DNA from: Acaryochloris marina MBIC11017
Lineage (GTDB): Bacteria; Cyanobacteriota; Cyanobacteriia; Thermosynechococcales; Thermosynechococcaceae
Assembly (NCBI RefSeq): GCF_000018105.1
Contig: NC_009926.1
Coordinates: forward strand, 210,001-242,000
Direction: 5' to 3'
Length of the DNA: 32,000 nt
A program made the position numbers and the translations under genes. The notes below the pieces were generated by a model that worked only from the letters and a program-made list of their open reading frames with translations, made no database searches and had not been told where the DNA came from. Shown piece by piece: positions 3,197-31,200 of this stretch. Within the stretch, counting starts at the first letter, position 1, and each line of letters starts with the position of its first letter.

Positions 3197-3233
3197 CCAA
3201 AATCCAAAATCAATAAATCCAAAATCAGTAAAT
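3197..3233. repeat. A-rich 7-8-nt periodic repeat CCAAAAT CCAAAAT CAATAAAT CCAAAAT CAGTAAAT, just upstream of the PKS start
   Basis: Read directly from the sequence. It has the same CCAAAATCC core as the 3' arms of the in-frame inserts at 10632-10688. Confidence 0.7.
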
Positions 3234-6200: not shown

Positions 6201-7915
6201 TCTATACCGTCAATCCCCAATCAAGCGATGATTACCAGACGCTGATCCAAACGCTAGTTAGTCAACATAAACGACTCCAAAAGATTGTGCATCTCTGGAC
6301 ACTTTCAACTAGTGAAAAGCCAAACGGTAACTTTGCCTCAGATTACCTCGCGTCGGATCCAGAATTGGTCCAAAGATGCCAATTTTCCGGATTTTACAGC
6401 CTCCTATTTCTAGCACAAGCACTCGCAAAACAAACCGAGCCAGATGCAAATTCAGATGGCATTCAGATCACGGTCATTTCTAATTATTTGCAATCAGTAA
6501 CAGGAAACGATCCTCTTGCACCCGAAAAGTCACTGCTGCTTGGCCCTATCCGGGTGATTCCCCAGGAGTATCCAACGATTCACTGTCGCAGTATCGACAT
6601 CAATTTGCCATCTCCTAATAGATGGCAAGCCGAAAGACTTACGGGGCAACTGTTGCATGACATTTGCTGTCCGATTACTGAACCGATTATTGCCTATCGG
6701 GGACATCAGCGATATGTACAAGCCGTTGAAAAAATTCGATTAGACGAACCCTCCAAAGAAGATTTTGAGGTGCGATCGCACCTGCGGCAAAATGGGGTTT
6801 ATCTAATCACAGGCGGATTGGGTCACATCGGTTTGACGTTAGCGCGATACCTGGCCGAATCGATGCAAGCCAAACTGATTTTGATGGGGCGTTCAACCTT
6901 GCCAGAAAAAGGTGAATGGCATACCTGGCTATCGACCCATGCTGCATCGGATCGGATCAGCCGCAAAATCCGCCAGATTCAGGCGCTGGAAGCCTTGGGC
7001 GCAGAAGTGTTGGTCGTGTCAGCCGATGTGTCCAATGAAGCGGAGCTGAGGAGTGCGATCTCACAGGCTGAATCTCAGTTTGGTGCAATTAACGGTGTAA
7101 TTCATGGGGCTGGGCTAGTCGGAGCCGAGACATTTAGGGCAATTTCCCAACTCGATCTCGTAACCTGTGAGCAGCAGTTTCAGCCCAAGGTTTATGGCTT
7201 ATTGGTATTAGAAAAGGTGCTGAATGACAAGCCGCTAGATTTCTGTCTACTGCTCTCGTCCCTATCGTCAGTTTTGGGTGGATTGGGTCATGCATCCTAT
7301 GCCGCTGCCAATCTGTTTATGGATGCGTTGACCCATTACCATAATCAGACCCATTCGTCTCCGTGGATCAGCATTAATTGGGATGCATGGAATCAGGATA
7401 GCGACACAGAAAAAATGGCCTTTTTCGGTTCTAGTTTGGCTCAGTTTTCAATTGAACCTGACGAGGGAATTCGGGCACTTCAGCAAATTTTACTGCATCC
7501 AGAACAGAGCCAGGTGATTGTATCCACTGCTGATTTAAGCGCTCGAATTGATCAGTGGATTAGACCAAAAGCAATTGGGAAGAAGCTAGCGCTTGAATCC
7601 TCTCACTCCCATGAAAGACCGACATTGAGTACTGATTATATTCCTCCTGAACATAAGGCGGAAAAAATACTGGCGGATATCTTTCAGCAGGTTTTGGGAG
7701 TTAAACCGATTGGCATTTATGACAGCTTTTTCGATCTGGGTGGAGATTCCATGATCGGAATTCAGCTCATTTCCAAAATTCGTAGCCATTTTCAAATTGA
7801 GCTATCTATTCAACATCTCTTTGAAGCACCCTGTATTGCTGATTTAGCCTTCAACATTGAAGCCCTTTTGATTGAGGATATTCTGGTTGAACCCTTGGGA
7901 ACTGAAAGCCGATGA
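3257..7915 (+). CDS. Type I PKS module KS-AT-KR-ACP
   Basis: 1552-aa ORF. Motifs present are DPQQRLFLE, TACSTSLVAVH, EAHGTGTALGD, KTNVGHL, FMFSGQGTQY, GHSIGEY, HAFHS, YLITGGLGHIG, SYAAAN and FFDLGGDSM. The TGA stop overlaps the next ATG (ATGA at 7912-7915). Confidence 0.95.
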   Translation: MNGLEIAIIGLSGRFPGAQTIDEFWQNLKQGVESVSFLSDEELLASGIDADTLSDPNYVKANAILSDADAFDAQFFGISPKEAELLDPQQRLFLEQSWTAISHAGYDPATYDGVIGVYAGVDTSTYLVNNLCPTYGGIADLQMFLGNAVDYLATRVAYKLNLNGPAITVQTACSTSLVAVHLACQSILNGECDMALAGGVSITVPQITGYTYQESGIASPDGHCRAFDAQAQGTLFGSGVGIVLLKRLSDVIADGDTIHAVIKGSAVNNDGALKAGYTAPSPEGQTTVISEAQAIAGIHPETITYIEAHGTGTALGDPIELAALTQVFRRQTNKTGFCAIGSVKTNVGHLSVAAGITGLIKTVLSLKHRQIPPSLHFQQPNPQIDFASSPFYVNTALADWPTGNTPRRAGVSSFGMGGTNVHVVLEETPPAIAAAPSRPWQLLKLSAKTPSALEQATAELINQLNQTPELNLADVAYTLQVGRPGFSERRMLVCQTLDQAVQDLENGTFASASSVDDRAAQRPIVFMFSGQGTQYVNMARELYDCEPTFRQWIDRGSDLLKPHLGLDLRHILYPNSAQTEDAAQQLQQTAVTQPALFLLEYALAQLWQDWGVAPTAMMGHSIGEYVAATLAGVFSFEAALTLVAARGALMQSLPAGQMLSLPLSEAEVQPLLGSGLSLAVINGAAACVVSGETDAVTDLQEKLAAQGVEGRLLHTSHAFHSAMMAPILDRFRQRVQQVSPNPPQIPFVSNVTGTWITPQEATDPAYWANHLRQTVRFADGLQTLMHDAAPILLEVGPGRTLTTLAKRHPSRPADTVILSSVRHPQDASSDAAFLLNTLGHLWLSGVLVNGAEFYRHESRRRIPLPTYPFEPQRYWIDPPRHSAHRALTALSDAGSNNGTSKTFVTQKSEIADWFYLPAWKPSVAPQAQFDPLATTCDLVLIHDQDREVGGFVNDLIQHLEQQNPNLIFVQPSTAFAQLNDRFYTVNPQSSDDYQTLIQTLVSQHKRLQKIVHLWTLSTSEKPNGNFASDYLASDPELVQRCQFSGFYSLLFLAQALAKQTEPDANSDGIQITVISNYLQSVTGNDPLAPEKSLLLGPIRVIPQEYPTIHCRSIDINLPSPNRWQAERLTGQLLHDICCPITEPIIAYRGHQRYVQAVEKIRLDEPSKEDFEVRSHLRQNGVYLITGGLGHIGLTLARYLAESMQAKLILMGRSTLPEKGEWHTWLSTHAASDRISRKIRQIQALEALGAEVLVVSADVSNEAELRSAISQAESQFGAINGVIHGAGLVGAETFRAISQLDLVTCEQQFQPKVYGLLVLEKVLNDKPLDFCLLLSSLSSVLGGLGHASYAAANLFMDALTHYHNQTHSSPWISINWDAWNQDSDTEKMAFFGSSLAQFSIEPDEGIRALQQILLHPEQSQVIVSTADLSARIDQWIRPKAIGKKLALESSHSHERPTLSTDYIPPEHKAEKILADIFQQVLGVKPIGIYDSFFDLGGDSMIGIQLISKIRSHFQIELSIQHLFEAPCIADLAFNIEALLIEDILVEPLGTESR
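3263..4537 (+). other. Ketosynthase domain, catalytic triad intact
   Basis: The triad is Cys173 (TGC 3773-3775, in TACSTS), His in EAHGTGT and His in NVGHL. Confidence 0.92.
4820..5761 (+). other. Acyltransferase domain, malonyl-CoA type
   Basis: GHSIGE active-site Ser (AGC 5117-5119). HAFH motif at 5405-5416, where methylmalonyl-specific ATs carry YASH. Confidence 0.85.
6794..7381 (+). other. Ketoreductase catalytic subdomain; a KR structural subdomain probably spans about 5970-6790
   Basis: NADPH motif GGLGHIG. K (QPKVYG), S (SSLSSV) and Y (SYAAAN) are all present. There is no LDD motif (AGLVGAE in its place), so I did not call a stereochemical type. Confidence 0.8.
7640..7861 (+). other. 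Acyl carrier protein domain
   Basis: FFDLGGDSMIGIQL, with the Ser codon TCC at 7748-7750. Confidence 0.88.
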
Positions 7916-10900
7916 CGAGTGAACTAAACAGAGACGAAAAAAGAAAGGCACTGCGATCGCGCCTCTCACCTGCTCAGCGGGCGCAACTCGACCAGCGTTT
8001 GCGGGGAGACAGATCGTCTGCGGTCAACGTCAACGCGATCCCTCGCCGTTCGACAACTTCACCGTCGCCGCTCTCCTTTGCCCAGCAGCGGTTGTGGTTT
8101 CTGCAACAGCTCGAACCTGGTCAGGCGTTTTACAACGAACATGCGGCGCTGCGACTGGCTGGGGAACTGAATCTTGCCGCTCTGGAGCACAGCCTGAATG
8201 CGCTGGTTGAACGCCATGAAGTCTTCCGCACCCGCTTTGATATCGTGCATGGGCAACCCGTGCAGGTGATTATCCCTCACCTAGCGCTGTCCTTGGCTCA
8301 AGCCGATCTGCAGACGGTACCAGCAGCCGATCAGGCCGAGGTCGTACAGCGTTTGTCAAGGGAGCAAAGCCACGAACCGTTCAATCTGGAACAGGCTCCG
8401 CTATTACGCTGGCTGTTGATCTGGCTGGATGAGCAAGACTACGTGCTGCTGTTCACCATTCACCACATCATCTTTGATGGCTGGTCGATTGATATCTTGA
8501 TGCGGGAGTTGTCGAGTTTCTATACAACGTTCTCAGCAGCAGACGATTCTGACAGTTCCAATGTCCTGCCTGAGTTACCAATTCAATATACCGAATATGC
8601 GCTCTGGCAACGGCAGTGGTTGCAGGGAGACGTGCTGCAAGCGCAACTAGACTACTGGCGGCGGCAGCTTGCCCAGGCTCCGCCGCTGCTGAATCTACCC
8701 AGCGATCGCCCACGACCTGCAATTCAAACCTATCGAGGAAAAGCCCAGACCTTTCAGCTCTCGCAGCCGATGGCTCAGGCGCTCAAGGATTTAAGTCGGC
8801 AGACGGGTCTGACGTTGTTTATGACGTTGCTGACGAGCTTCAAGATTCTGCTGCATCGCTACACCGAACAGACGGATCTGATTGTCGGTTCTCCGGTGGC
8901 GAACCGCAATCGGGCAGAGGTGGAAGGGCTGATCGGCGTGTTTGTAAATAGCCTAGTGCTGCGTACCGATTTGTCTGGCAATCCAACGGTTGCCGAACTG
9001 ATGCAGCGGGTGCGACGGGTACTGCTGGGAGCCTATGCCAACTCGGAGCTGCCGTTTGAAAAGCTGGTGGAGGAACTCCAGCCCGAACGCGATACGCACT
9101 CCAACCCCCTATTTCAGGTGTCGTTTACGCTGCACAACACGCCCCGGCAGGCGGTTGAGCTATCGGGGCTGACCCTAACGCCTGTAGAGGTGAGCCGCGA
9201 TCGCGCCTTGCTAGATCTGCGCTTGGACATGACAGAAACCGAACAGGGACTAACGGGATGCTGGGAATACAGCACCGACTTGTTTGATGATGATCGAATT
9301 GAGCGGATGAGTGGCCATTACCAGAAACTACTGGAGATGATGGTAGCTAATCAAGCCCAGCACATTGCAGATCTGTCCCTCCTGACTGAATCTGAGTTCC
9401 ACCAGTTGATGCAATGGAATCAGACACAGGCTGACTATCCCCAAGATCGGTGTTTATCTGAGCTGTTCGCCACCCAGGTTGAACAAACGCCAGATGCGAT
9501 TGCACTCATCTTCGAAGACCAACACTTGACCTATGCCGAACTCAATGCCCGAGCTAATCAACTCGCTCACTATCTGCAAACCCTAGGGGTGAAGCCAGAT
9601 GATTTGGTGGGAATTTGTTGCGATCGCAGCCTCGACATGATGATTGGACTGCTGGGCATCCTCAAATCGGGAGGAGCCTATGTGCCGATTGATCCGGACT
9701 ACCCGAGCGATCGCTTGGCCTGGATGATGAGTGATGCCCACCTAGCGATTCTGCTCACCCAACGCTCTCTAACGGATCAGCTACCTCCCCATCAGGCTCA
9801 GGTCGTTGAACTGGATGGGGATTGGCAGACAATTGCCCAGCAACCCCGACACAATCTCGCTAATCTGGCTACGGCAGACCACCTCGCCTACGTCATCTAC
9901 ACCTCCGGTTCAACAGGCAAGCCTAAGGGGGTGCAGATTACTCACCGCAGTCTGGTTAATTTCCTCTGCTCGATGCACAAACAGCCCGGTTTAACTGCGG
10001 ATGACACATTACTGGCTATCACCTCGATTTCCTTTGATATCGCGGCACTGGAACTGTATCTTCCCCTGATTACCGGGGCAAAGGTCGTCGTCGCTAGTCG
10101 TACAGTAGCCGCCGATGGCGAACAACTCAGTGAACTGCTTAGCCGCACAGGCGCAACCATTATGCAGGCCACCCCCGCCACCTGGCGGATGCTGCTGACC
10201 GCAGGCTGGTCTGGACAAGCCGGACTAAAAATGCTCTGTGGCGGTGAAGCCCTGAGTGGCGATCTGGCTCAGCAGTTAATGAACATGGGAACTTCCGTCT
10301 GGAATCTCTATGGCCCCACCGAAACCACCATCTGGTCTACGATTTATCCAGTAAAGAACCAGCCACACAATCACACCGACTCCGAAGTCCCCTTTACCAA
10401 GGGGGATTTAGGGGGATCAATCCCTATCGGCCACCCCATCGCCAACACCCAAATCTATCTCCTCGATCGCCACGGACAGCCTGTGCCTGTCGGCGTTCCC
10501 GGTGAACTGCACATCGGCGGCGACGGACTCGCACGGGGCTACCTGAATCGACCTGAGCTAACGGCAGAACGATTTATTGATTTTGGATTGCCAATTGCCG
10601 ATTTTGGATTAGAGCCAGACTCACAAATCCCTCCAAAATCCGAAATCGTTCGACTGAGCGCTCACGACGAAGTCCAAAATCCAAAATCCGTTCGTTTATA
10701 CAAAACTGGCGACCTCGCCCGCTACCGTCCGGATGGCTCAATCGAGTATCTAGGTCGCCTGGATCATCAGGTGAAAATTCGCGGCTTCCGGATTGAACTG
10801 GGGGAAATTGAAGCCGTCTTGCGTCAGCATTCAGATGTCCATGAGGTGGTCGCGATCTCCCGTCCCGACTTATTCGGAGAGTCGCAGTTAGTGGCCTATT

Positions 10901-13900
10901 TGGTCTGCCAGCCAGAACGACAGGTAGACAGTGGTGAGCTACGCAAATTCTTACGGGCGAAACTGCCAGACTACATGGTGCCTGCGACCTATATGACGCT
11001 GGAGGCTCTGCCCCTGACACCCAATGGCAAGGTCGATCGCAAGGCGCTACCTGCTCCTACACCGGAGTTGCGTATGATCGACGCTGATGCTAGTCCTGCA
11101 AGCCCAATTGAGGACATGCTGGCAGGGGTTTGGGCAGCAACTTTGGGGCTTGAGGGGGTGGGTCGCTACGACAACTTCTTTGAGTTGGGCGGACATTCTC
11201 TGCTGGCAACACAGGTTATGTCTCAGATACAGCGTTTGTTGCAAGTAGAGGTACCGTTGCGGTCGCTATTTGAATCACCCACCGTCGCACAGCTAGCGGA
11301 ACGGGTTGAGGCGGCAATCCAGACCGGAGCCTCCTTAAGTATCCCAGCTATCCAGTCCCGGTCGAATCGGGACGTTGCCCCCCTCTCATTTGCCCAAGAG
11401 CGCATGTGGTTTTTGGCTCAGCTTGAACCCGAAAACCCCTTTTACAATCTGCCGATTGCCGTCGCTCTGGACGGTTTGCTTGACCTCGATGCCTTGGAGC
11501 AAACTCTGACAGAGATTCTGCGTCGCCATCAGGGGCTACGCACCCGCATTGAGACTCGCGTAGGAGTTGCGATCGCTCGGATTGCAGATCCCGTTCCGTT
11601 CCCGCTACGGCGAGTTGATTTGAGCCAGTCCGCCAGCCTAGATCGAGAGCCTGAAATCCAGCGTTGGATTGACACCGCAGCCCGTCAACCCTTTGACCTC
11701 CAGCAGGATCTCCTCCTGCGAGCCACCGTACTTCGCCTGTCGGAGCAGGAGCATATTTTGCTGTTGACGCTGCATCACATTGCCGCTGATGCCTGGTCTT
11801 TCGGACTGCTGGCCAGTGAAATCAGCGCTCTCTATCCGGCTTTCTGTGACGGCAACCCCTCTCCCTTACCGGAACTACCGATTCAGTATGGCGACGTGGC
11901 GGTGTGGCAGCGACAGTGGCTACAAGGGAACGCCCTCCAAACGCAAATGGACTATTGGCGGCAGCAGCTACAGGATGCACCCGCGTTGCTGAACCTGCCC
12001 ACCGACTATCCCCGCCCCGCTGTCCAGACCTATCGAGGGGCACGCTACGGTTTTGAGCTTTCTGCCAGCCTGACGCGATCGCTACATCATCTCAGTCAGC
12101 AGGCAGGCTGCACTCTATTTATGACGCTGCTGGCCGCGTTCAAGCTGCTGCTGGGGCGCTACAGCAACAGTACCGATATCCTCGTGGGAACGCCCATTGC
12201 CAACCGCAATCGGGCTGAGGTTGAAGACCTGATTGGCTGTTTCGTGAATACGCTGGTGCTGCGAACGGATCTCTCCCATCAGCCAACGGTATTGAAACTA
12301 CTTGAGCGGGTGCGAGAGGTAGCTCTGGGAGCCTATGCCCATCAGGATTTGCCTTTCGAACAACTGGTAGACGGACTGCAACTAGGGCGATCGCTGAGTC
12401 ATACGCCGCTATTTCAGGTGATGTTTGTGCTGCAGAACACGCCGCTACCGCAGGTGACGCTGCCAAACCTCCAGATTCATCCGCTCGACACTGGGAGCGG
12501 TACTACTCAGTTTGATCTCACCCTTTCTCTGGAGGAAACGCCTGCCGGACTCACTGGCGTTATTGAGTATAACTGCGACTTGTTTGAGGAAGCGACCATT
12601 ACTCGGATGGCAGGACACTACCAAATGCTGCTGGACGGGTTTGTTGCCCATCCCCAGCGGCCTGTGGCAGAACTGCCCTGTTTGACAACTGCCGAGCAGC
12701 AGCAGCTAGTTGCTTGGAATCAAACCCAGGCCGTGTATTCACAGGATGCCTGTATTCACCATTTGTTTGAAGCCCAGGTTGAACGGATACCCGATGCGAT
12801 CGCAGTTGTTTTCCAGGATCAGCAGCTGACGTATGGGGAACTCAACCAGAGAGCCAATCAGTTGGCCCAGAAGTTGCGATCTCAGGGAGTACAGCCGGAT
12901 GTTCCTGTGGGCATTTGTGTGGAGCGCTCAATCGATATGCTGGTGGCGCTGCTAGGGGTACTGAAGGCAGGCGGCGCGTACCTGCCCCTCGATCCTACCT
13001 ATCCGTCTGAGCGGCTGGCGTTTATGCTGGACGATGCCCAAGTTAAGCATTTGGTTACTCAGTCCGCTCTGTGCGATCGTATTCCTCCCCATCAGGCACA
13101 AGTGGTTTATCTGGATAGACTTGCCACTGAAAACTCTCGACCGGATTCAGGCAATCCAATTCACTCACCGCAGACGGAAAATTTAGCCTATGTAATCTAT
13201 ACCTCCGGCTCTACGGGCAAGCCTAAAGGGGTGATGGTAAACCACCGCTCTCTAGTGAACTACACCGAAGCGATTGCTTCAGCCTATGTTCTGAAACCAA
13301 GCGATCGCGTCCTGCAATTTGCCTCTATCAACTTCGATGTGGCGGCAGAAGAAATCTTCCCGACGCTGGCGCAGGGAGGGACATTGGTCTTACGCACCGA
13401 TGAGATGCTCGATTCAATCCCCACCTTTTTACATCAGGTTCAAGCGTTAGAGTTGACGGTGCTCAACCTGCCCACCGCATTTTGGCATCAGTTCACGGCT
13501 GAACTCGACAGAATGTCAACGACTGTTCCGGATTCCCTACGGCTGGTGGTAATTGGTGGCGAACGCGCTCTAGCCGATCGCGTCCAAACCTGGCATCGAG
13601 TGGTGGGCGAACAGATTCGCCTCGTGAACTGCTACGGCCCAACCGAAGCAACTATCGGCGCAACGCTCTGTGATTTAACCGCCTATGCTCCAACTGAATG
13701 GGCGGGGAACGAATCGGGGGCAACCATCCTCAGTTCTAACGATGTCCCCATCGGCAAACCCATTCAGAACGTCCAAACCTACGTGCTCAACGCCGACTTG
13801 CAACCTGTCCCCATCGGCATTCCTGGCGAACTGTATATCGGTGGCGATGGTCTCGCACGCGGCTACTTGAATCGACCTGAGCTAACGGCAGAACGATTTG

Positions 13901-16071
13901 TTGATTTGAGATTGCCGATATCTAATTCAAAATTCAAAACTCAAAATTCAAAACTCTCCCCTTCGATTTGTTTATATAAAACGGGCGATCTTGTCCGCTA
14001 CCGCCCCGACGGTAATCTAGAGTATCTGGGCCGCATCGACCATCAGGTGAAGATGCGCGGCTTTCGGATTGAATTGGGTGAAATTGAAGCGGCATTGGGT
14101 CAGCATCCGGCGGTGCAGAATGCCGTGGTAGTTGACGACGAGACGGAACTGGGTACCCGCCGCTTGGTGGCTTATGGGGTAGCAATGCCCTATGCCGACC
14201 TGTCGATGCCTGAGTTGCGCCAGTTTTTGACAGAGAAACTACCGGCCTACATGGTGCCTGCGGTGTTTGTGCTTCTGGAAACTCTGCCACTGATGCCCAA
14301 TGGCAAGGTGAATCGCCAGGCACTGCCCGCTCCAGATGCCACCCAGGCGGAGTCTGACGCTACTGTGGCTTCCCCCCGAACACCGACTGAAATCACCTTG
14401 GCTGAGATTTGGGCGCAGGTGTTGTCAGTGACGCAGGTGGGCATTCACGACAACTTCTTTGAGTTGGGCGGCGATTCGATTCTCAGTCTCCAAGTGGTAG
14501 CCAGATCTCATCAAGCCGGACTACAATTCACGCCCAAACAGCTTTTTGAGCATCAGACCATTGCCGAATTGGCGATCGTTGCCCAGACGAAGCACGAAAC
14601 GGAGATTGAGCAGGGATTAGCCACGGGGTCTGTTGGGTTAACGCCTATCCAGCAGTGGTTCTTTGAGCAACAGTTGCCGGATCCCCATCACTTCAACCAA
14701 GCGGTACTTCTAGAAGTGCCGCAGCCACTCGACCCAGGGCTGCTGGAACAGGCAGTTCAACAGGTGCTCATTCACCACGATGCGCTCCGGCTGCGGTTCG
14801 AACCAATAGAGTCCAGCTGGCGGCAGGAATATGCTCCACCTGATTCAGCGCTACTTCTAATCAGGTGGGATTTCTCAACTCTGAGCAAGGCGGAGCAGCA
14901 GGCCGCCTTTGCTACTGCAGCCGCTGAACTCCACACCAGCCTTGACCTATCTAAGGGGCCGCTGCTGCGGGTGGGCTATTTTGATTGGGGAGATCACCTC
15001 TCGGATAGCCTACTGATTGTGATTCATCACTTGGTAGTGGACGGTGTATCCTGGCGCATCCTGCTGGAGGATTTGCAGACGGCCTACCAGCACCTCAGTC
15101 GAGGAGAAACGGTGCAGCTTCCCGCTAAAACGCTGTCGTTCCAGCAGTGGTCGCAGCAACTACAGCAGATGGCTCAAACGGTACTGGACTCATCAGAACC
15201 CGACTACTGGCTGGCACAGCAGTCTTCGACACCGCTGCCTGTGGATATAGTAGGTGCAGAAAAAGCAGGGGCGGAAAATACGGTTGCCTCAGCGGCTACG
15301 GTTCACTGCATCTTGAGCATGGCTGAGACTCAAGCTTTGCTCAAAGAAGTGCCGTCTGTCTACAACACTGAAATAAACGACGTGTTGCTGACTGCCTTAG
15401 TACAAACGTTAACGGCATGGGTTGAGCCTGATGCAGCTATCCATTCACCCACCTTCTTGATCGATCTCGAAGGCCACGGACGAGAGGGTATTACCGCAAA
15501 CCTCAACGTCTCACGCACGGTGGGCTGGTTCACCACCGTCTTTCCAGTGGCTCTAAGCCTTGACCCCAACGTCCATCCAGGCGAAGCGTTAAAGCAGGTC
15601 AAAGAACAACTGCGCCGCATTCCCCATCAAGGGCTCGGCTACAGGCTGCTGCGCTATCTCAGCGAGGAACCAAGCCTCACCGCAGCGTTGAAAAACCTCC
15701 CCCAAGCCAACATTCTGTTCAACTACTTAGGCCAGTTTGACTCTGCGCTGACGGACACTGCCCTATTTCGTCCGCTGTCGGAATCGGCAGGGCCAACTCA
15801 AAGTCCACGCGGTCAACGCAGCCACTGGCTGGAGATCAATTGCTGGGTGAGTGGCGGACAACTGCATCTGGACTGGATTTACAGTCAGGCGCTGCATCAA
15901 TCCAGCACGATGGAAACGCTGGCGCAGCAGTTTATGGAGACATTGCGATCGCTGATTGCCCACTGTCAATCTCCAGACGCAGGTGGCTATACCCCCTCTG
16001 ACTTTTCGGAAGCAGACTTGAGTCAAGATGACCTCGATCGCTTCCTAGCCCACCTCAATCGCAGGAGTTAG
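7912..16071 (+). CDS. NRPS, two modules plus epimerase: C-A(Gly)-T-C-A(unassigned)-T-E
   Basis: 2719-aa ORF. Motifs, in order: SFAQQRLWFL, HHIIFDGWS, LAYVIYTSGSTGKPKGV, FFELGGHSLLAT, SFAQERMWFL, HHIAADAWS, LAYVIYTSGSTGKPKGV, FFELGGDSILSL. E-domain motifs follow: PIQQWFF, HHLVVDGVSW, EGHGRE, RTVGWFT and FNYLGQ. Confidence 0.95.
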   Translation: MTSELNRDEKRKALRSRLSPAQRAQLDQRLRGDRSSAVNVNAIPRRSTTSPSPLSFAQQRLWFLQQLEPGQAFYNEHAALRLAGELNLAALEHSLNALVERHEVFRTRFDIVHGQPVQVIIPHLALSLAQADLQTVPAADQAEVVQRLSREQSHEPFNLEQAPLLRWLLIWLDEQDYVLLFTIHHIIFDGWSIDILMRELSSFYTTFSAADDSDSSNVLPELPIQYTEYALWQRQWLQGDVLQAQLDYWRRQLAQAPPLLNLPSDRPRPAIQTYRGKAQTFQLSQPMAQALKDLSRQTGLTLFMTLLTSFKILLHRYTEQTDLIVGSPVANRNRAEVEGLIGVFVNSLVLRTDLSGNPTVAELMQRVRRVLLGAYANSELPFEKLVEELQPERDTHSNPLFQVSFTLHNTPRQAVELSGLTLTPVEVSRDRALLDLRLDMTETEQGLTGCWEYSTDLFDDDRIERMSGHYQKLLEMMVANQAQHIADLSLLTESEFHQLMQWNQTQADYPQDRCLSELFATQVEQTPDAIALIFEDQHLTYAELNARANQLAHYLQTLGVKPDDLVGICCDRSLDMMIGLLGILKSGGAYVPIDPDYPSDRLAWMMSDAHLAILLTQRSLTDQLPPHQAQVVELDGDWQTIAQQPRHNLANLATADHLAYVIYTSGSTGKPKGVQITHRSLVNFLCSMHKQPGLTADDTLLAITSISFDIAALELYLPLITGAKVVVASRTVAADGEQLSELLSRTGATIMQATPATWRMLLTAGWSGQAGLKMLCGGEALSGDLAQQLMNMGTSVWNLYGPTETTIWSTIYPVKNQPHNHTDSEVPFTKGDLGGSIPIGHPIANTQIYLLDRHGQPVPVGVPGELHIGGDGLARGYLNRPELTAERFIDFGLPIADFGLEPDSQIPPKSEIVRLSAHDEVQNPKSVRLYKTGDLARYRPDGSIEYLGRLDHQVKIRGFRIELGEIEAVLRQHSDVHEVVAISRPDLFGESQLVAYLVCQPERQVDSGELRKFLRAKLPDYMVPATYMTLEALPLTPNGKVDRKALPAPTPELRMIDADASPASPIEDMLAGVWAATLGLEGVGRYDNFFELGGHSLLATQVMSQIQRLLQVEVPLRSLFESPTVAQLAERVEAAIQTGASLSIPAIQSRSNRDVAPLSFAQERMWFLAQLEPENPFYNLPIAVALDGLLDLDALEQTLTEILRRHQGLRTRIETRVGVAIARIADPVPFPLRRVDLSQSASLDREPEIQRWIDTAARQPFDLQQDLLLRATVLRLSEQEHILLLTLHHIAADAWSFGLLASEISALYPAFCDGNPSPLPELPIQYGDVAVWQRQWLQGNALQTQMDYWRQQLQDAPALLNLPTDYPRPAVQTYRGARYGFELSASLTRSLHHLSQQAGCTLFMTLLAAFKLLLGRYSNSTDILVGTPIANRNRAEVEDLIGCFVNTLVLRTDLSHQPTVLKLLERVREVALGAYAHQDLPFEQLVDGLQLGRSLSHTPLFQVMFVLQNTPLPQVTLPNLQIHPLDTGSGTTQFDLTLSLEETPAGLTGVIEYNCDLFEEATITRMAGHYQMLLDGFVAHPQRPVAELPCLTTAEQQQLVAWNQTQAVYSQDACIHHLFEAQVERIPDAIAVVFQDQQLTYGELNQRANQLAQKLRSQGVQPDVPVGICVERSIDMLVALLGVLKAGGAYLPLDPTYPSERLAFMLDDAQVKHLVTQSALCDRIPPHQAQVVYLDRLATENSRPDSGNPIHSPQTENLAYVIYTSGSTGKPKGVMVNHRSLVNYTEAIASAYVLKPSDRVLQFASINFDVAAEEIFPTLAQGGTLVLRTDEMLDSIPTFLHQVQALELTVLNLPTAFWHQFTAELDRMSTTVPDSLRLVVIGGERALADRVQTWHRVVGEQIRLVNCYGPTEATIGATLCDLTAYAPTEWAGNESGATILSSNDVPIGKPIQNVQTYVLNADLQPVPIGIPGELYIGGDGLARGYLNRPELTAERFVDLRLPISNSKFKTQNSKLSPSICLYKTGDLVRYRPDGNLEYLGRIDHQVKMRGFRIELGEIEAALGQHPAVQNAVVVDDETELGTRRLVAYGVAMPYADLSMPELRQFLTEKLPAYMVPAVFVLLETLPLMPNGKVNRQALPAPDATQAESDATVASPRTPTEITLAEIWAQVLSVTQVGIHDNFFELGGDSILSLQVVARSHQAGLQFTPKQLFEHQTIAELAIVAQTKHETEIEQGLATGSVGLTPIQQWFFEQQLPDPHHFNQAVLLEVPQPLDPGLLEQAVQQVLIHHDALRLRFEPIESSWRQEYAPPDSALLLIRWDFSTLSKAEQQAAFATAAAELHTSLDLSKGPLLRVGYFDWGDHLSDSLLIVIHHLVVDGVSWRILLEDLQTAYQHLSRGETVQLPAKTLSFQQWSQQLQQMAQTVLDSSEPDYWLAQQSSTPLPVDIVGAEKAGAENTVASAATVHCILSMAETQALLKEVPSVYNTEINDVLLTALVQTLTAWVEPDAAIHSPTFLIDLEGHGREGITANLNVSRTVGWFTTVFPVALSLDPNVHPGEALKQVKEQLRRIPHQGLGYRLLRYLSEEPSLTAALKNLPQANILFNYLGQFDSALTDTALFRPLSESAGPTQSPRGQRSHWLEINCWVSGGQLHLDWIYSQALHQSSTMETLAQQFMETLRSLIAHCQSPDAGGYTPSDFSEADLSQDDLDRFLAHLNRRS
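8065..9351 (+). other. Condensation domain (accepts the ACP-bound polyketide-thiazole acyl chain)
   Basis: PLSFAQQRLWFLQQLEP, RHEVFRTRF, HHIIFDGWS, IQYTEYALWQ, IGVFVNSLVLR, ELPFEKLV. Confidence 0.88.
9439..11052 (+). other. Adenylation domain, glycine code DILQLGLIWK
   Basis: The code comes from FDIAALE / MQATPAT / LCGGEA / WNLYGPTETTIW aligned by hand to GrsA. The domain lies inside the perfect repeat 9313-11057. Confidence 0.85.
10576..10695 (+). repeat. In-frame MITE-like palindromic insert in the A6-A7 loop (encodes IDFGLPIADFGLEPDSQIPPKSEIVRLSAHDEVQNPKSVR)
   Basis: GATTTTGGATT at 10579-10589 and again at 10600-10610. The perfect reverse complement AATCCAAAATC is at 10678-10688, and TCCAAAATC is at 10632-10640. 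The paralogous A domain at 22946-24463 lacks the segment. Confidence 0.7.
11098..11301 (+). other. Thiolation domain
   Basis: YDNFFELGGHSLLATQV, with the Ser codon TCT at 11197-11199. Confidence 0.9.
11377..12666 (+). other. Condensation domain (LCL-like), C3 motif variant HHIAADAWS
   Basis: PLSFAQERMWFLAQLEP, RHQGLRTRI, HHIAADAWS (11773-11796), IQYGDVAVWQ, IGCFVNTLVLR, HQDLPFEQLV. Confidence 0.88.
12739..14331 (+). other. Adenylation domain, specificity unassigned (hand-derived code DVENVGCIGK)
   Basis: The code comes from FDVAAEE / LNLPTAF / VIGGER / NCYGPTEATIG. The acidic residue at position 239 hints at a polar or cationic substrate, but I do not recognise the code. Confidence 0.8.
13903..13971 (+). 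repeat. Shorter, diverged in-frame insert at the same A6-A7 position (DLRLPISNSKFKTQNSKLSPSIC)
   Basis: GATTTGAGATTGCC resembles GATTTTGGATTGCC. It is followed by AATTCAAAATTCAAAACTCAAAATTCAAAACTC, an A-rich 7-nt periodic tract. Confidence 0.6.
14374..14577 (+). other. Thiolation domain of the E-partner type (GGDSI)
   Basis: HDNFFELGGDSILSLQV. The GGDSI variant is characteristic of carrier domains that feed E domains. Confidence 0.88.
14623..15981 (+). other. Epimerization domain, followed by a COM-donor-like tail (about 15990-16068)
   Basis: LTPIQQWFFEQ, HHLVVDGVSWRIL, DLEGHGREG, SRTVGWFTTVFPV, PHQGLGYRLLRYL, LFNYLGQFD. The tail is GGYTPSDFSEADLSQDDLDRFLAHL. Confidence 0.9.
16063..16067 (+). 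promoter_or_regulatory. Shine-Dalgarno-like AGGAG for the stand-alone C gene
   Basis: AGGAG lies 9 nt upstream of ATG 16077, inside the last codons of the preceding gene. Confidence 0.6.
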
Positions 16072-16076
16072 CGTCC

Positions 16077-25600: not shown

Positions 25601-28093
25601 CCGATTGCCAACCGCAACCGGGCTGAAACCGAGAGACTGATTGGCCTGTTCGTCAACACCCTGGTGCTGCGGACGGATCTGTCGGATAACCCCAACGTTA
25701 CCGAACTCTTGAGCCGCGTCCGAGAGGTAGCCCTGGGAGCCTATGCTCATCAGGATTTACCCTTTGAGCAGTTAGTAGAAGAATTGCAGCCTGAGCGATC
25801 GCTGAGCTATTCTCCCCTCTTTCAAGTAATGTTCGTGTTGCAAAACGCTCCATTCTCACAGGTTGATCTGCCAGAATTGACCCTGACCCCGCTGGAGAGC
25901 GATAGCGGCACAACGCAGTTTGACCTCATCCTCTCACTGACAGAAACGGATGCAGGTCTGATGGGCACGGTGGAATATGACACGGATCTATTTGGGGTAG
26001 GGACGATCGCCCGTCTAGTCGGCCATTACCAGAAACTACTGGAGATGATGGTAGCTAATCAAGCCCAGCACATTGCAGATCTGTCCCTCCTGACTGAATC
26101 TGAGTTCCACCAGTTGATGCAATGGAATCAGACACAGGCTGACTATCCCCAAGATCGGTGTTTATCTGAGCTGTTCGCCACCCAGGTTGAACAAACGCCA
26201 GATGCGATTGCACTCATCTTCGAAGACCAACACTTGACCTATGCCGAACTCAATGCCCGAGCTAATCAACTCGCTCACTATCTGCAAACCCTAGGGGTGA
26301 AGCCAGATGATTTGGTGGGAATTTGTTGCGATCGCAGCCTCGACATGATGATTGGACTGCTGGGCATCCTCAAATCGGGAGGAGCCTATGTGCCGATTGA
26401 TCCGGACTACCCGAGCGATCGCTTGGCCTGGATGATGAGTGATGCCCACCTAGCGATTCTGCTCACCCAACGCTCTCTAACGGATCAGCTACCTCCCCAT
26501 CAGGCTCAGGTCGTTGAACTGGATGGGGATTGGCAGACAATTGCCCAGCAACCCCGACACAATCTCGCTAATCTGGCTACGGCAGACCACCTCGCCTACG
26601 TCATCTACACCTCCGGTTCAACAGGCAAGCCTAAGGGGGTGCAGATTACTCACCGCAGTCTGGTTAATTTCCTCTGCTCGATGCACAAACAGCCCGGTTT
26701 AACTGCGGATGACACATTACTGGCTATCACCTCGATTTCCTTTGATATCGCGGCACTGGAACTGTATCTTCCCCTGATTACCGGGGCAAAGGTCGTCGTC
26801 GCTAGTCGTACAGTAGCCGCCGATGGCGAACAACTCAGTGAACTGCTTAGCCGCACAGGCGCAACCATTATGCAGGCCACCCCCGCCACCTGGCGGATGC
26901 TGCTGACCGCAGGCTGGTCTGGACAAGCCGGACTAAAAATGCTCTGTGGCGGTGAAGCCCTGAGTGGCGATCTGGCTCAGCAGTTAATGAACATGGGAAC
27001 TTCCGTCTGGAATCTCTATGGCCCCACCGAAACCACCATCTGGTCTACGATTTATCCAGTAAAGAACCAGCCACACAATCACACCGACTCCGAAGTCCCC
27101 TTTACCAAGGGGGATTTAGGGGGATCAATCCCTATCGGCCACCCCATCGCCAACACCCAAATCTATCTCCTCGATCGCCACGGACAGCCTGTGCCTGTCG
27201 GCGTTCCCGGTGAACTGCACATCGGCGGCGACGGACTCGCACGGGGCTACCTGAATCGACCTGAGCTAACGGCAGAACGATTTATTGATTTTGGATTGCC
27301 AATTGCCGATTTTGGATTAGAGCCAGACTCACAAATCCCTCCAAAATCCGAAATCGTTCGACTGAGCGCTCACGACGAAGTCCAAAATCCAAAATCCGTT
27401 CGTTTATACAAAACTGGCGACCTCGCCCGCTACCGTCCGGATGGCTCAATCGAGTATCTAGGTCGCCTGGATCATCAGGTGAAAATTCGCGGCTTCCGGA
27501 TTGAACTGGGGGAAATTGAAGCCGTCTTGCGTCAGCATTCAGATGTCCATGAGGTGGTCGCGATCTCCCGTCCCGACTTATTCGGAGAGTCGCAGTTAGT
27601 GGCCTATTTGGTCTGCCAGCCAGAACGACAGGTAGACAGTGGTGAGCTACGCAAATTCTTACGGGCGAAACTGCCAGACTACATGGTGCCTGCGACCTAT
27701 ATGACGCTGGAGGCTCTGCCCCTGACACCCAATGGCAAGGTCGATCGCAAGGCGCTACCTGCTCCCGACCTATCCCGGACGCAGGATGAAATCGTCCCAC
27801 CCCGCAGCCACACCGAAGCGACATTGGCTACCCTCTATACCGAAATTCTTGGGGTAGAGATAATCAGTGTCCATGACAACTTTTTTGAACTGGGGGGACA
27901 TTCGTTACTTGCTACCCGCCTCACCTCCCGTCTGCGCGAAACCTTTGAACTGGAGCTCTCTCTGCGTAGCCTGTTTGAAAAACCGACCATTGCTGAACTG
28001 GCAGAACACATCGACGTTCTCCGGTTGGCGATTGCCCAAGCCCCCATCCCTGCTACTACAACCGAACCGGGTCGAAAGGAAATTGAACTATGA
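18845..28093 (+). CDS. NRPS, three modules: [C-terminal-lobe C remnant]-A(Dab-like)-T-C-A(Gly)-T-C-A(Gly)-T
   Basis: 3082-aa ORF. Motifs, in order: [151 protein letters not shown]. The TGA stop overlaps the next ATG (ATGA at 28090-28093). Confidence 0.95.
   Translation: [3082 protein letters not shown]
19667..21265 (+). other. Adenylation domain, hand-derived code DIWEMTADDK (closest to my recollection of a Dab code, DIWELTAD..)
   Basis: The code comes from SSDISVWQ / VELVPVV / MVTGED / [11 protein letters not shown]. This A domain is the most divergent in the cluster, and its N-terminal core is visibly AT-richer. Confidence 0.8.
21311..21514 (+). other. Thiolation domain
   Basis: [18 protein letters not shown]. 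Confidence 0.9.
21584..22864 (+). other. Condensation domain (LCL-like)
   Basis: [65 protein letters not shown]. Confidence 0.88.
22310..22570 (+). repeat. Near-identical tract shared by two C domains (partner 25511-25771)
   Basis: I saw about 8 mismatches in about 260 nt. Identity falls off on both sides. The tract encodes [86 protein letters not shown]. Confidence 0.75.
22946..24463 (+). other. Adenylation domain, glycine code DILQLGLIWK; paralogue lacking the A6-A7 insert
   Basis: FDIAALE / MQATPAT / LCGGEA / [12 protein letters not shown]. The A6-A7 segment is short ([27 protein letters not shown]). Confidence 0.85.
24116..24460 (+). repeat. A-domain C-terminal-subdomain tract about 96% identical to 10708-11052 and 27416-27760
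   Basis: I saw about a dozen mismatches in about 345 nt. Identity starts right after the insert site (GGCGACCTCGCCCGCTACCG...). Confidence 0.75.
24506..24718 (+). other. Thiolation domain
   Basis: [18 protein letters not shown]. Confidence 0.9.
24794..26059 (+). other. Condensation domain (LCL-like)
   Basis: [65 protein letters not shown]. Confidence 0.88.
25511..25771 (+). repeat. Partner of the 22310-22570 tract (offset +3,201)
   Basis: As for the partner tract. Confidence 0.75.
26147..27760 (+). other. Adenylation domain, glycine; nucleotide-identical copy of 9439-11052
   Basis: It lies inside the perfect repeat 26021-27765. Confidence 0.88.
27284..27403 (+). repeat. Identical second copy of the in-frame palindromic insert
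   Basis: It is part of the perfect repeat. The inverted-repeat arms are at 27287-27297 and 27386-27396. Confidence 0.7.
27812..28012 (+). other. Thiolation domain
   Basis: [18 protein letters not shown]. Confidence 0.9.
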
Positions 28094-28284: not shown

Positions 28285-31200
28285 CAGGCTCATGCCGCCT
28301 CCCATTTGTCCCTTCCCGAGATACAAGCGATCGCCCGTCCAGAGCATGTATCGTTATCGTTTGCGCAGCAGCGGCTGTGGTTTCTCGATCAGATGGAACC
28401 CAATAGTCCGCTCTACAACATTCCAGCAGCGGCTCGTTTAACGGGTACCCTGGATGCGATCGCACTCGATCAAAGCTTCAATGCCATCGTGCAGCGACAT
28501 GAGAGTTTACGAACGGCCTTTCAAGCCGTAGATGGTCAGCCCGTTCAGATGATTGTGCCCGAATTAACCGTGCCTCTACAGCGTGTTGACCTCAGTACCC
28601 TTGACAAAGCGGAGCAGGAAGTTCGAGTGCTGCAACTTGCCCAGCAAGAGGCTCAGCAGCCGTTTGACCTCACCCAGGCACCACTGCTGCGAGTCACTCT
28701 GATCCGGCTAACGGATACTGAGCATGTGGTGCTGTTGACGATGCACCATATCATCTCGGATGCCTGGTCAATGGATATTTTGCTGCAGGAGTTAACCGCT
28801 CTGTATGGGGCGTTTTCAGCTGGACAGCCGTCTCCTTTATCAGAGCTGTCGATTCAGTATGCTGACCTTGCGGTCTGGCAGCGCCAATGGTTGCAGGGGG
28901 AGGTGCTAGAGCGGCATCTATCCTATTGGCACCAGCAGTTGGGTGGAAACCTGCCGATTTTGCAACTGCCCAGCGATCGCCCCCGTCCTCGCGTTCAAAG
29001 CTTCCGGGGAGCCAAGCACACCTTTACACTTTCGGCTGAGCTGACGGCAGCCCTCAAAGCCTTGAGCCAGCAAGCAGGTGTCACCCTATTCATGACTCTG
29101 CTGGCCTCGTTCAAGGTACTGCTCCATCGCTACACCGGGCAGGCAGATTTGTTGGTCGGTTCCCCCATCGCCAACCGCAATCGCTCTGAAATTGAGGGGC
29201 TGATCGGATTCTTTGTGAATACCCTGGTGCTGCGGAGTAACCTGGCCGACAACCCGACCTTTCGTGAGCTGTTGCAGCAAGTGCAGCAGACGACTCTAGC
29301 GGCCTATGAACATCAAGATCTGCCGTTTGAAAAACTAGTGGAAGAGTTGCAACCGGAGCGAGACCTCAGTTACAGTCCACTATTTCAGGTCAAGTTTGCG
29401 CTTGAAAATGCACCTACAAGCGATCTCAATCTTGCTGACTTGACAATGAGCTTTCTTCAGTTCGAAAGTTCGACGGCCAAGCTCGATTTGAGTTTGGACA
29501 TGAGCGAAGAGGTGTCTGACACTGGGGCGGCTCGTTTAGGAGGTACCTTCGAGTACAGTACCGATTTATTTGACAAAGCAACGATTCAGGCAATGGCCGA
29601 ACATTTCCAGTGCTTACTGACTGGCATCGTTGCCCATCCCGATCAGTGCATCTCTGACCTGCCGTTGCTAACAGAAGCCGAGCGGTATCAGCAGTTCGTG
29701 ACCTGGAACGATACTCAGGTTGAGTATGCTCAGGACGAATGCTTTCATCAGCGATTTGAAGCTCAGGTTGAACAAACACCCAATGCGATCGCACTCGTTT
29801 TTCAAGATGAGCAGCTCACCTATGCTGAACTGAATCGGCAGTCCAACCAGCTTGCCTACTATCTGCAAAACCAAGGCGTGAAACCTGAGGTTGTAGTAGG
29901 GCTGTGCGTAGAGCGATCACCTGCCATGATCTTGGGACTGCTCGGCATTCTCAAAGCCGGAGGTGCCTATCTGCCGCTTGACCCCACCTATCCGCCTGAG
30001 CGGCTGGCTTTTATGCTGGCGGATGCGCAAGTGCCGCTGCTGGTGACGACCTCCACCTCAGCGACCCATCTGCCTAACCCTACCGCCCAGGTGATCAAGT
30101 TGGATGCCGATTGGCCGACCATTTCTCAGGAACCGGAACACAATCCCAGCAGTGCGGTTACGGTCGAAAACCTAGCCTACTTGATCTATACCTCCGGCTC
30201 AACTGGCACACCGAAGGGCGTTTTGGTGCCCCATGCCGGATTGGTCAATCTAACCGACGACAAGATTCGCACCTGCCAGGTGCGCCCCGATAGTCGCGTC
30301 CTGCAATTTTTCTCGCTCAGCTTCGATGCATCCGTTCCCGAAATTGTCATGAGTTTGGGTTGTGGTGCTGCCCTCCATCTAGCTCCCCCAGAGGATTTGC
30401 TACCAGGGCCGGGACTCCTAAAGCTACTGCGAGAACAGGCCATCACCCACATCACCGCACCACCCTCTGCCCTGACCGCATTACCACCAGCAGACTTACC
30501 CGCGCTGCAGATGGTGTTGGTGGGCGGCGAAGCGCCATCGCCGGAACTGATTGCCCAGTGGTCAAAAGGACGACTGTTCATCAACGCCTATGGCCCCACT
30601 GAAACCACCGTCAACGCCAGCATGGTGCCTTGTGAGGCTGGAGCAGAACCAACCCTGCGACCAGCGGCCAACAAGCAGCTCTATATCCTTGATCGCCATC
30701 TCCAACTCTTGCCCATTGGCGTACCGGGCGAATTGTATATCGGTGGCATCGGCCTAGCACGAGGCTATCTCAATCGGCCTGAAAAAACGGCAGCAGCCTT
30801 TGTGGATTTTGGATTGCCGCTTTTCGATGCTGGATTAGATACGGGTCAGTTATTATCTCCAAACTCCAAAATCCCTAGCGCAGCGCAGCAGAGCCATGCC
30901 TTTGAGGCTATAAATCCAGAATCAACTCGTTTATACAAAACCGGCGACCTAGCCTGCTACCGCCGTGACGGTCATATCAAGCTGCTGGGGCGGCTAGATC
31001 ATCAGGTGAAGATTCGAGGCTTTCGGATTGAATTGGGCGAAATTGAAGCCCGCCTGGCTCAACATCCGGCGGTTCAGGAGAGTGTGGTGATTGTACGCGA
31101 AGATCAACCGGGCGAACGCCGCTTGGTGGCCTATGTTGCAACCAGCTCAGACCCAGCACCCACCACCAGTGAGCTACACCGTTTTGTCGCTAAAACCCTG

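Follow-up and report, generated by a model that had tools for sequence, protein, structure and literature searches.

Two identical copies of a glycine-type adenylation segment in one PKS/NRPS cluster of Acaryochloris marina, probably the product of very recent gene conversion

Within a 32,000-nt stretch of DNA from Acaryochloris marina MBIC11017 (the window), a segment of 1,745 nt was found twice, at positions 9313–11057 (+ strand; copy 1, designated tract T1) and 26021–27765 (+ strand; copy 2). Copy 1 lies in module 1 of gene 3 and copy 2 in module 3, the last of gene 6, and the host locus is a cyanobacterial hybrid PKS/NRPS gene cluster. Very recent gene conversion within the cluster, in the form of replacement of one adenylation (A) domain by another, is considered to have made the two-copy segment, with a probability of approximately 0.85.

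Direct comparison of the assembled sequence showed that 1745 of the 1745 bases were equal, and self-BLASTN and a repeat finder returned the same 1,745-nt pair. The sequence-only reading had described the two segments as identical base for base and had reasoned that scattered mismatches would mean an old duplication; the alignment contained no mismatch, and the 581 encoded amino acids were the same. At each end the very next base is different (9312 vs 26020, and 11058 vs 27766), so that the exact match stops there. The abrupt divergence of the flanks reported in that reading was borne out, with ungapped identities of 0.48–0.60 (~50%) on the left, where the C domains are homologous and diverged, and 0.20–0.26 (~25%) on the right, the level of unrelated sequence. 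Similarity falls to nothing at the right edge because the A-T linkers of the two modules are unrelated. The edges had also been placed correctly, at ..GHYQKLLEMM on the left and at ..KALPAP, followed by T or D, on the right. Both copies start in codon phase 0 of their own genes and stop after base 2 of a Pro codon (CCT vs CCC); therefore, 581 identical residues and one shared Pro are encoded.

Against a background of 76%, the identity between the paralogous modules that resemble each other most, 1745 consecutive matches would arise by chance with a probability of ~0.76^1745, roughly 1e-208, and a chance origin is excluded. At the approximately 423 synonymous sites of the repeat, 0 differences were observed, as the claim of zero synonymous divergence required, vs a pS of ~0.66 between the neighbouring duplicated C domains. 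The similarity thus extends to synonymous sites, which is homogenisation and not purifying selection. Identity was 100% over 1745 nt in the repeat vs 48–61% in the C domains and 47–59% in the T regions.

Gene 3 (7912–16071, + strand) encodes an NRPS with the order C-A(Gly)-T-C-A-T-C, the final C-like domain of which is divergent, and gene 6 (18845–28093, + strand) encodes an NRPS with the order A-T-C-A(Gly)-T-C-A(Gly)-T, in which the first A domain has a Dab-like code, DIWEMTADDK. The repeat opens with the C-terminal ~32 residues of a C domain; these are followed by the C-A linker and then by an entire Gly A domain, with both Acore and Asub and with motifs A1–A10 all intact. In Pfam searches, the Condensation domain of gene 3 occupied residues 53–499, and T1 begins at residue 468; AMP-binding and AMP-binding_C occupied residues 52–411 and 498–573, respectively, of the 581 residues of T1. 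The tract stops 8 residues past AMP-binding_C and 22 residues ahead of PP-binding, which starts at residue 603. The breakpoints of T1 therefore bracket the A domain, and the body of the C domain was not co-transferred. HIP1 sites were present in the repeat, as in the remaining cluster.

The code DILQLGLIWK was found in all three Gly A domains, namely both repeat copies and that of gene 6 module 2. It departs in a single position from two published glycine codes, DILQLGMIWK and DILQLGVI. By its motifs and code, the repeated A domain is predicted to be of the glycine-activating type, and the previous assignment of three A domains to glycine holds for all of them.

Misassembly, with chimeric junctions, had been named as an alternative to recent exchange. 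Logan contigs (k = 31) built from other public read sets of this strain were compared with the window and were 100% identical to it over about 22 kb. Contigs of eight runs ended at 9342 (9313 + 29), 30 nt inside the left edge, and contigs from at least four runs in three accession series (including L092–L095) started at 27736 (27765 – 29); contig L001 covered 13870–22339 and was bounded by two other shared 31-mers. The breaks thus fell exactly where the repeated 31-mers of the window predict. Breaks at 9342 and 27736 indicate that the reads hold at least two left and at least two right contexts of the repeat. Both copies are therefore present in the genome, and, as far as junctions and copy number are concerned, misassembly is for the most part excluded, since the branch points at the outer edges recur in independent runs. 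It is scarcely credible that a single genomic A-domain copy was misplaced in the second module or used for a chimeric join. Nothing beyond the general risk that accompanies repeats speaks for it; the outer-edge breaks in the de Bruijn contigs need two neighbours for the first and last k-mers of the repeat, a complete C-A-T module stands at each repeat site with both host genes in frame, and the sole alternative pairing of the flanks would be a 16.7-kb deletion plus a circle.

A different possibility is that two very similar copies exist and that their perfect identity was made by the assembler, hiding a few true differences, through multi-mapped short-read polishing of a long-read assembly, bubble collapse, or filling of a gap from a collapsed consensus. 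An exact repeat of 1,745 nt is beyond usual short-read insert resolution, yet the window is contiguous over both copies, and the Logan contig breaks probe only the edges of the repeat and not its interior. We nevertheless regard this as unlikely: the 100% agreement with independent assemblies over ~22 kb of unique sequence shows that the assembly is accurate elsewhere, and the differences preserved in two further similar tracts (14 in T2 and 5 in T3; see below) show that the pipeline was no general homogeniser. Even if this were true, the biology would be the same, namely very recent conversion with divergence well below 1%.

The two further tracts lie in gene 6. The third Gly A domain, that of gene 6 module 2 (22820–24462, + strand), is paralogous to the repeat and mosaic in its similarity to it, with identities of 57–73% in the 5′ part, 80–85% in the middle and 96–97% in the last 351 nt. 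The earlier description of this domain as clearly diverged accordingly applies to its 5′ two-thirds (~73%) and fails for the last 351 nt (96%). The latter constitute a conversion-like tract, T2 (24112–24462, + strand; A7–A10, Asub), which matched 10704–11054 and 27412–27762 at 96.0% over 351 nt with 14 mismatches (pS = 11/86.8, pN = 3/261). The right edges of T2 and T1 coincide, and the left edge of T2 abuts the site of a ~96-nt insertion in the repeat, missing from gene 6 module 2. Another conversion-like tract, T3, is shared by the C domains of gene 6 modules 2 (copy a, 22310–22545, + strand) and 3 (copy b, 25511–25746, + strand); its copies were 97.9% identical over 236 nt with 5 mismatches, the surrounding C domains being ~77% identical, and its pS was 4/63.7 vs 66/99.8 in the adjoining C-domain sequence. 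Within the same genes pS is thus graded (T1, 0; T3, 0.06; T2, 0.13), which indicates repeated conversion over time and not a single artefact. Judged by this divergence, T2 and T3 appear to be conversion-like events older than T1.

Orthologous clusters were found in Drouetiella hepatica and in a Coleofasciculaceae MAG (L004 and L005). Their proteins are 60–67% identical to those of the window, i.e., distant. Module 1 of gene 3 is also of the Gly type in both orthologues (code DILQLGLVWK); their gene 6 has only two modules, one C-A-T module fewer than that of the window, and its final A domain bears another code. Neither cluster contained an internal repeat exceeding 87% identity over ~50–150 nt. 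The orthologues do not share the paired identical A domains and are in this respect incongruent with the cluster in the window. The earlier proposal of very recent gene conversion or domain-unit exchange is thus supported by the absence of synonymous differences, the older tracts and the repeat-free orthologues.

We propose non-reciprocal homologous recombination (ectopic gene conversion or double crossover) between paralogous modules of the same cluster, in which a whole adenylation unit would have overwritten its counterpart in a module 16.7 kb away. The exchanged unit would run from the GHYQ patch in the last C-domain helix through the C-A linker, Acore and Asub to the NGKVDRKALPAP patch past A10. 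Both ends of the tract fall in short patches common to all three Gly modules, where similarity between modules drops, modestly at the left edge and totally at the right edge, and it is at such drops that a heteroduplex formed by paralogues, or branch migration between them, should come to a halt. Each module would have kept its own C and T domains, the A protein sequence now being the same, and both modules are predicted to activate glycine.

The mechanism, the direction of transfer and the prior state of the recipient are what we infer from these comparisons. Transfer from gene 3 module 1 (donor) to gene 6 module 3 (recipient) is favoured, although not proven. Ahead of the left edge, the sequence of gene 6 module 3 is like that of module 2, its tandem paralogue (TIARLVGHYQ), and past the edge it follows gene 3 instead. 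The replaced domain probably belonged to the same paralogue family and was of the Gly type beforehand; the event would then most likely have homogenised the modules (concerted evolution) with the product unchanged. A search for a sister strain whose two A domains are still distinct found none, so that the direction and the recipient's prior state rest on the orthologues of 60–67% amino acid identity.

Some points weigh against conversion. The 5′ third of the old recipient, with module 2 as proxy, would have been only 57–73% identical and a poor substrate for homologous recombination, and the exchanged unit takes in the C-A linker and Asub, which are usually spared in natural exchanges (PMC8097286). 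As the modules are only ~50% identical outside the tract, a classical RecA-dependent exchange must have begun inside the A domain.

The same low similarity lends something to another account, in which the cassette was duplicated by a mobile-element-like or illegitimate mechanism, or the same foreign A cassette was acquired twice, since the flanks are too diverged for homologous exchange outside the tract. The A domain also holds insertions derived from dispersed repeats. An in-frame insertion of ~32 residues between motifs A6 and A7 (DFGLPIADFGLEPDSQIPPKSEIVRLSAHDEVQNPKS) occupies 10590–10700 (+ strand) in copy 1 and 27298–27408 in copy 2, and is missing from gene 6 module 2 and from both orthologues. 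It is built from a dispersed cyanobacterial short repeat, its 56-nt core matching unrelated metagenome contigs (L097–L105) at 93–98% and a Calothrix plasmid at 96%. However, no target-site duplications, terminal inverted repeats or transposase genes were found at the edges in the sequence and the ORF list, which contains NRPS/PKS, C-domain and aminotransferase genes only. Moreover, the edges lie in motifs conserved among all Gly modules with the frame exactly preserved, the presence of HIP1 sites, as in the rest of the cluster, points to native cyanobacterial DNA, and the shape of T2 and T3 is what homologous conversion would leave. Such an origin is therefore considered very improbable, and conversion between the modules remains the preferred reading.

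More tentatively, and with considerable doubt on our part, concerted evolution may currently be active in the cluster, with the A unit from GHYQ to KALPAP serving as a functional natural exchange cassette and the dispersed-repeat insertions between A6 and A7 limiting the tracts. If true, this would be at odds with the view that a module needs its native C-A linker and Asub-T interface.

A-domain recombination is regarded as the main route by which non-ribosomal peptides diversify. To our knowledge, nearly all documented A-domain exchanges are old, with blurred edges, and have been inferred statistically. With zero divergence, the exchanged unit in the window is defined to the base, and the two older tracts in the same genes provide a relative time series. 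If the recipient module is active, the edges could serve as natural fusion points for NRPS engineering; should both modules prove active, the sharply defined edges would represent a fusion site validated by evolution. The repeat will cause short-read assemblies and genome-mining tools to fragment or collapse the cluster at this point. Homologous recombination between the in-frame direct copies could remove 16.7 kb, comprising four modules and two genes, and this direct repeat would thus offer a one-step route to module loss.

The closest parallel is microcystin synthetase. Within a single strain, identity there is 93–97% between the A domains of mcyB1 and mcyC and 27–28% between their C domains, a pattern put down to recurrent intragenomic recombination that replaces the A domain and leaves the C domain in place (Fewer et al. 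2007, PMC2174460; see also Shishido et al. 2013, PMC3640908). As in that system, two genes of one cyanobacterial NRPS cluster are involved here, with 100% identity in the A domains vs ~50% in the C domains. Compared with the 93–97% nucleotide identity of mcyB1/mcyC in Anabaena and Hapalosiphon, the window shows zero divergence and unblurred edges. The mcy recombination area extends from A1–A10 into the middle of the T domain, whereas T1 begins ~32 residues inside the C model and stops before T. Unlike mcyB1/mcyC, the modules of the window were most likely of the Gly type before and after the event, and no change of product is implied.

In the exchange units described by Baunach et al. (2021, PMC8097286), recombination targets A alone and the conserved core motifs are thought to be crossover points; A-domain recombination within a genome is documented in that study as well. 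The tract in the window likewise exchanges the A domain and not C plus A together. It differs from an Acore-only exchange, in which the native C-A linker, Asub and Asub-T interface are kept, in that T1 includes both the linker and Asub; T2, unlike T1, is essentially an Asub-only tract (A7–A10). In the wollamide/desotamide NRPS, an A domain was rewritten by another from the same genome after module or gene duplication, and gene conversion and concerted evolution were named as homogenising forces (Booth et al. 2022, PMC9205934). That case, from Streptomyces, differs in that the donor lay in a separate cluster, the tract is confined to the inside of A and leaves the C-A interface intact, the specificity changed from Orn to Gly, and the parental sequences have already diverged.

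GRINS are duplications of >500 bp and >80% identity in assembly-line PKS and are attributed to gene conversion, through which several modules come to share a building block (Nivina et al. 2021, PMC8256042). The present repeat, 1745 bp at 100%, lies well within these limits of length and identity. Mean absolute GC and TA skews, calculated in 150-nt windows with a step of 30 and required to be >0.15 in GRINS, were 0.121 and 0.085 in the repeat, close to the averages of the whole window (0.101 and 0.088); the skew signature of GRINS is thus lacking, and the repeat belongs to NRPS and not PKS modules. The case in the window is a further example of a known process, caught at an unusually early stage.

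Direct comparison of nt 9313-11057 (gene 3, module 1) with nt 26021-27765 (gene 6, module 3) within the assembled window showed that 1,745 of 1,745 positions were identical and that the exact match could not be extended by even one base on either side, confirming the base-for-base identity claimed in the sequence-only reading. Self-BLASTN, the check it had proposed, returned the same pair as the top repeat, and together with a repeat finder showed it to be the strongest in the window by far. The abrupt divergence of the flanks that it described was also observed, starting from the first flanking base: ungapped identity was 0.48-0.60 over 50-1000 nt on the left, where an old homology between the two C domains accounts for it, and 0.20-0.26 on the right, the level of unrelated sequence. 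Chance origin of the identical run was excluded, the probability of an exact run of 1,745 being approximately 1e-208 even at 76% identity, that of the most similar paralogous modules.

Both copies start at codon phase 0 of their host genes and encode 581 identical residues. Pfam places the gene 3 C domain at residues 53-499. With its start at residue 468, the repeat takes in ~32 residues at the end of that model, then the C-A linker, where WNQTQ (the equivalent of the WNATE motif) stands 34 residues in, and the entire AMP-binding and AMP-binding_C domains. The repeat ends 8 residues past AMP-binding_C, and the carrier-domain model begins 22 residues beyond its end. All A-domain core motifs were present (10/10). 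Motif anchors gave the ten-residue specificity code DILQLGLIWK for gene 6 module 2 as well as for the two copies; DILQLGMIWK and DILQLGVI have been published as codes for glycine. The left edge lies within GHYQ and the right edge within NGKVDRKALPAP, and both patches are common to all three Gly modules (gene 3 module 1, gene 6 module 2 and gene 6 module 3).

The window carries a hybrid PKS/NRPS cluster with all seven genes on the + strand. Gene 1 (A-Ox-T in the window) is complete in L084, a contig of the same strain from the Logan assemblies, where it encodes 1450 aa with the organization TubC_N-C-A-Ox-T. It is followed by gene 2 (KS-AT-KR-ACP), gene 3 (C-A-T-C-A-T-C), gene 4 (a stand-alone C domain), gene 5 (a class-III aminotransferase), gene 6 (A-T-C-A-T-C-A-T) and gene 7 (C-A-T-reductase; full length in L092, another such contig). 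The nearest relatives of gene 5 in a GTDB genome scan were all cyanobacterial, the best being from Drouetiella hepatica (81%). The HIP1 octamer GCGATCGC occurs at 32 sites in the 32 kb, compared with ~0.75 expected from base composition, and two sites lie inside each repeat copy (9620 and 9707; 26328 and 26415). Upstream (L084, 1-9721), the cluster continues with a large PKS, an ER-ACP protein and full gene 1, which has a TubC-type docking domain at its N-terminus and also a C/Cy domain; the C/Cy and Ox domains suggest thiazole formation. Downstream (L092, 355-5999), the release domain at the end of gene 7 is a reductase (NAD_binding_4), and a methyltransferase comes next. The Dab-like module is split, with genes 4 and 5 (16077-18762) standing between genes 3 and 6; the gene 5 aminotransferase probably makes 2,4-diaminobutyrate. 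Gene 6 starts with a remnant of ~210 residues (18845-19550) whose only resemblance is to the C-terminal half of a C domain, at 25-29% identity, and the A domain after it has the code DIWEMTADDK. The last domain of gene 3 (14630-16071), of the Condensation family, shares only 23-30% identity with the cluster's other C domains but 62-64% with its orthologue, and could be a specialised C-like domain, for example one for epimerisation.

Copy number was assessed with Logan contigs, which are independent k=31 assemblies, each of a single public run; those carrying exact proteins of this cluster were used, and they were 100% identical to the window over 9,342, 8,470 and 4,265 nt. All 31-mers present twice in the window were listed for comparison with the contig ends. 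Contig L001, spanning 13870-22339, starts inside a shared 32-mer (13868-13899) and ends inside another (22310-22341). All contigs carrying gene 2 (8/8; runs SRR29694077-91) end at 9342 (9313+29), and 27736 (27765-29) is the first position in contigs from SRR29694083, SRR29694091, DRR194263 and SRR13180898. By de Bruijn logic, such stops need two predecessors of the first repeat k-mer and two successors of the last; therefore, two left and two right contexts with these exact edges are present in the reads of several runs. Misassembly at the junctions, raised earlier as an alternative, is countered by this reproduction of the edges in independent runs. The four flanks can be paired in only one other way, yielding a 16.7-kb deletion plus a circle, and thus the arrangement in the window is the sensible one. 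Polishing may have erased a few interior differences between the copies, but 14 and 5 differences survived in two neighbouring near-identical tracts (T2 and T3, below), which argues against general homogenisation by the pipeline. In an exact-sequence look-up, none of 4 predicted interior fragments was matched, but neither were 2 positive controls known to be in Logan. The full gene 3 and gene 6 products had no record by exact look-up, as would be expected from the break of short-read contigs at the repeat.

A codon-aligned sliding window and mismatch lists revealed three tracts in the mosaic of the three Gly modules. T1 is the repeat itself (1,745 nt at 100%). T2 (10704-11054 versus 24112-24462; 14 mismatches, 96.0% identity) spans A7-A10 (Asub) in gene 6 module 2; outside the tract, the A domain of that module is 57-85% identical to the repeat. 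T3 (22310-22545 versus 25511-25746; 5 mismatches, 97.9%) lies within the C domains of modules 2 and 3 of gene 6; elsewhere, these two domains are ~77% identical. Synonymous differences numbered 0/423 in T1, 4/64 in T3 and 11/87 in T2, compared with 66/100 in adjoining C-domain sequence. This graded divergence therefore points to repeated conversion in the cluster, with T1 as the latest event. The right end of T2 is the same point as that of T1, and its left start is the very point at which the sequences can again be aligned beyond a ~96-nt insertion present in the repeat only, as would be expected if heterology stops heteroduplex extension.

A GTDB genome scan with the gene 5 aminotransferase detected two loci, one in a Drouetiella hepatica MAG (L004) and one in a Coleofasciculaceae MAG (L005), 96% identical to each other. 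Both carry an orthologous cluster with the gene order of the window, and their domains share 56-76% protein identity with those of the window. Gene 3 module 1 is also Gly by code in both (DILQLGLVWK). Gene 6 encodes 1,974 and 1,970 aa, respectively, compared with 3,082 aa in the window, one C-A-T module fewer, and its last A domain has a different code, read as DVSHITLIWK. No internal repeat of >87% identity over ~50-150 nt was found in either locus. Within the window, the C domain of gene 6 module 2 shares 78% identity with that of module 3, and both share ~63-65% with the single orthologous C domain. The T domain of module 3 is the orthologue of the last T domain in the two loci, and that of module 2 is closest to the T domain following Gly in their gene 3. 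Comparison of the modules thus indicates gain of a Gly module in gene 6 first and partial homogenisation later; as read from these sequences, the window lineage gained this module by within-cluster duplication and shuffling and then homogenised parts of modules. Separately, the A domain of gene 3 module 2 (12600-14300) shares ~48% protein identity with L004 5130-6770, compared with 67% and 72% for the flanking C and T domains, which are orthologous, and the codes are DVENVGCIGK-like in the window and DAW..FGLIDK-like in L004. This A domain marks a separate, older replacement between lineages.

The repeat is best explained by ectopic gene conversion between paralogous modules of the same cluster, or by a double crossover between them; the recombination preferred in the sequence-only reading gains support from the edges, the copy number in reads, the older tracts and the orthologues. 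The ends of the conversion would mark the limits of usable homology. If the recipient was already a Gly paralogue, the event would be a homogenisation leaving the product unchanged. Gene 6 module 3 resembles its tandem paralogue, module 2, just before the left edge (TIARLVGHYQ), and gene 3 after it; because of this switch, and because Gly is ancestral at gene 3 module 1, gene 3 is favoured as the donor. This direction is tentative, because the repeat is no closer than the module 2 A domain to the A domain of orthologous gene 3 module 1 (60-63% aa for both). A weakness of the conversion model is that, with module 2 as a stand-in for the old recipient, the 5' third is just 57-73% identical, a poor substrate for RecA-type exchange. 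Two other candidates were rejected: selection as the cause of identity, since synonymous sites are identical, and duplication by a mobile element, since the edges have no element features. Since the two copies lie in direct orientation and share a codon phase, recombination between them would fuse the genes in frame and delete 16,708 bp.

The homologous-protein search with the 581-aa unit gave matches of at most 61% identity and also missed the paralogue in the same cluster. The JGI metagenome scan with this unit detected no close relative, the matches being confined to a dispersed-repeat insertion, and the plasmid collection yielded only two matches, of 52 nt (the dispersed repeat) and 57 nt (a conserved motif). 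The insertion lies in frame in the A6-A7 loop (10590-10700 = 27298-27408), consists of GATTTTGGATT / AATCCAAAATC-type short repeats and encodes DFGLPIADFGL...PKSEI...EVQNPKS. The A6-A7 loop also holds comparable insertions in two other A domains, those of gene 3 module 2 (~13900-13960) and of gene 7 module 1 (~30830-30950). Nine unrelated metagenome contigs (L097-L105) contain stretches that match the 56-nt core of the insertion in the repeat (~10632-10689) at 93-98% identity, a Calothrix plasmid has an unannotated stretch that matches it at 96%, and an inverted 19-nt copy of the dispersed repeat lies in the gene 1-gene 2 spacer (3201-3219). The insertion looks like a dispersed cyanobacterial repeat, tolerated within A domains and co-copied by conversion. 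A second extra stretch, SEVPFTKGDLGGS / SEIPLSKGDLGGS, directly past motif A5 (10381-10441 and 23873-23933), is coded by palindromic CCCCTTTACCAAGGGGG...GGGGGATC sequence; it is found in the Gly A domains of this cluster and is missing from the L004 and L005 orthologues.

The closest precedent is mcyB1/mcyC of microcystin synthetase, in which, within one strain, the A domains are 93-97% identical and the C domains 27-28%, a pattern attributed to recurrent A-domain replacement without the C domain; the recombination area there runs from A1-A10 into the T domain (PMC2174460). Related cases include conversions in mcyA2 (PMC3640908) and an intragenomic wollamide/desotamide event (PMC9205934). According to a broad survey, natural exchanges mostly swap parts of Acore, sparing the C-A linker, Asub and the Asub-T interface (PMC8097286); T1 and T2 depart from this trend. 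By definition, the conversion-associated PKS repeats known as GRINS exceed 500 bp, 80% identity and a mean absolute skew of 0.15 for both GC and TA (PMC8256042). The repeat is within these limits in length and identity, but its skews of 0.121 (GC) and 0.085 (TA) fall short of 0.15, by which it was ruled out as a GRINS. What makes the case valuable is that its edges are exact to the base, that the C-A linker and Asub are part of the unit, and that the tracts form a series of differing age. The repeat is a new and unusually fresh example of a known process, found in a cyanobacterial gene cluster that is still uncharacterised.
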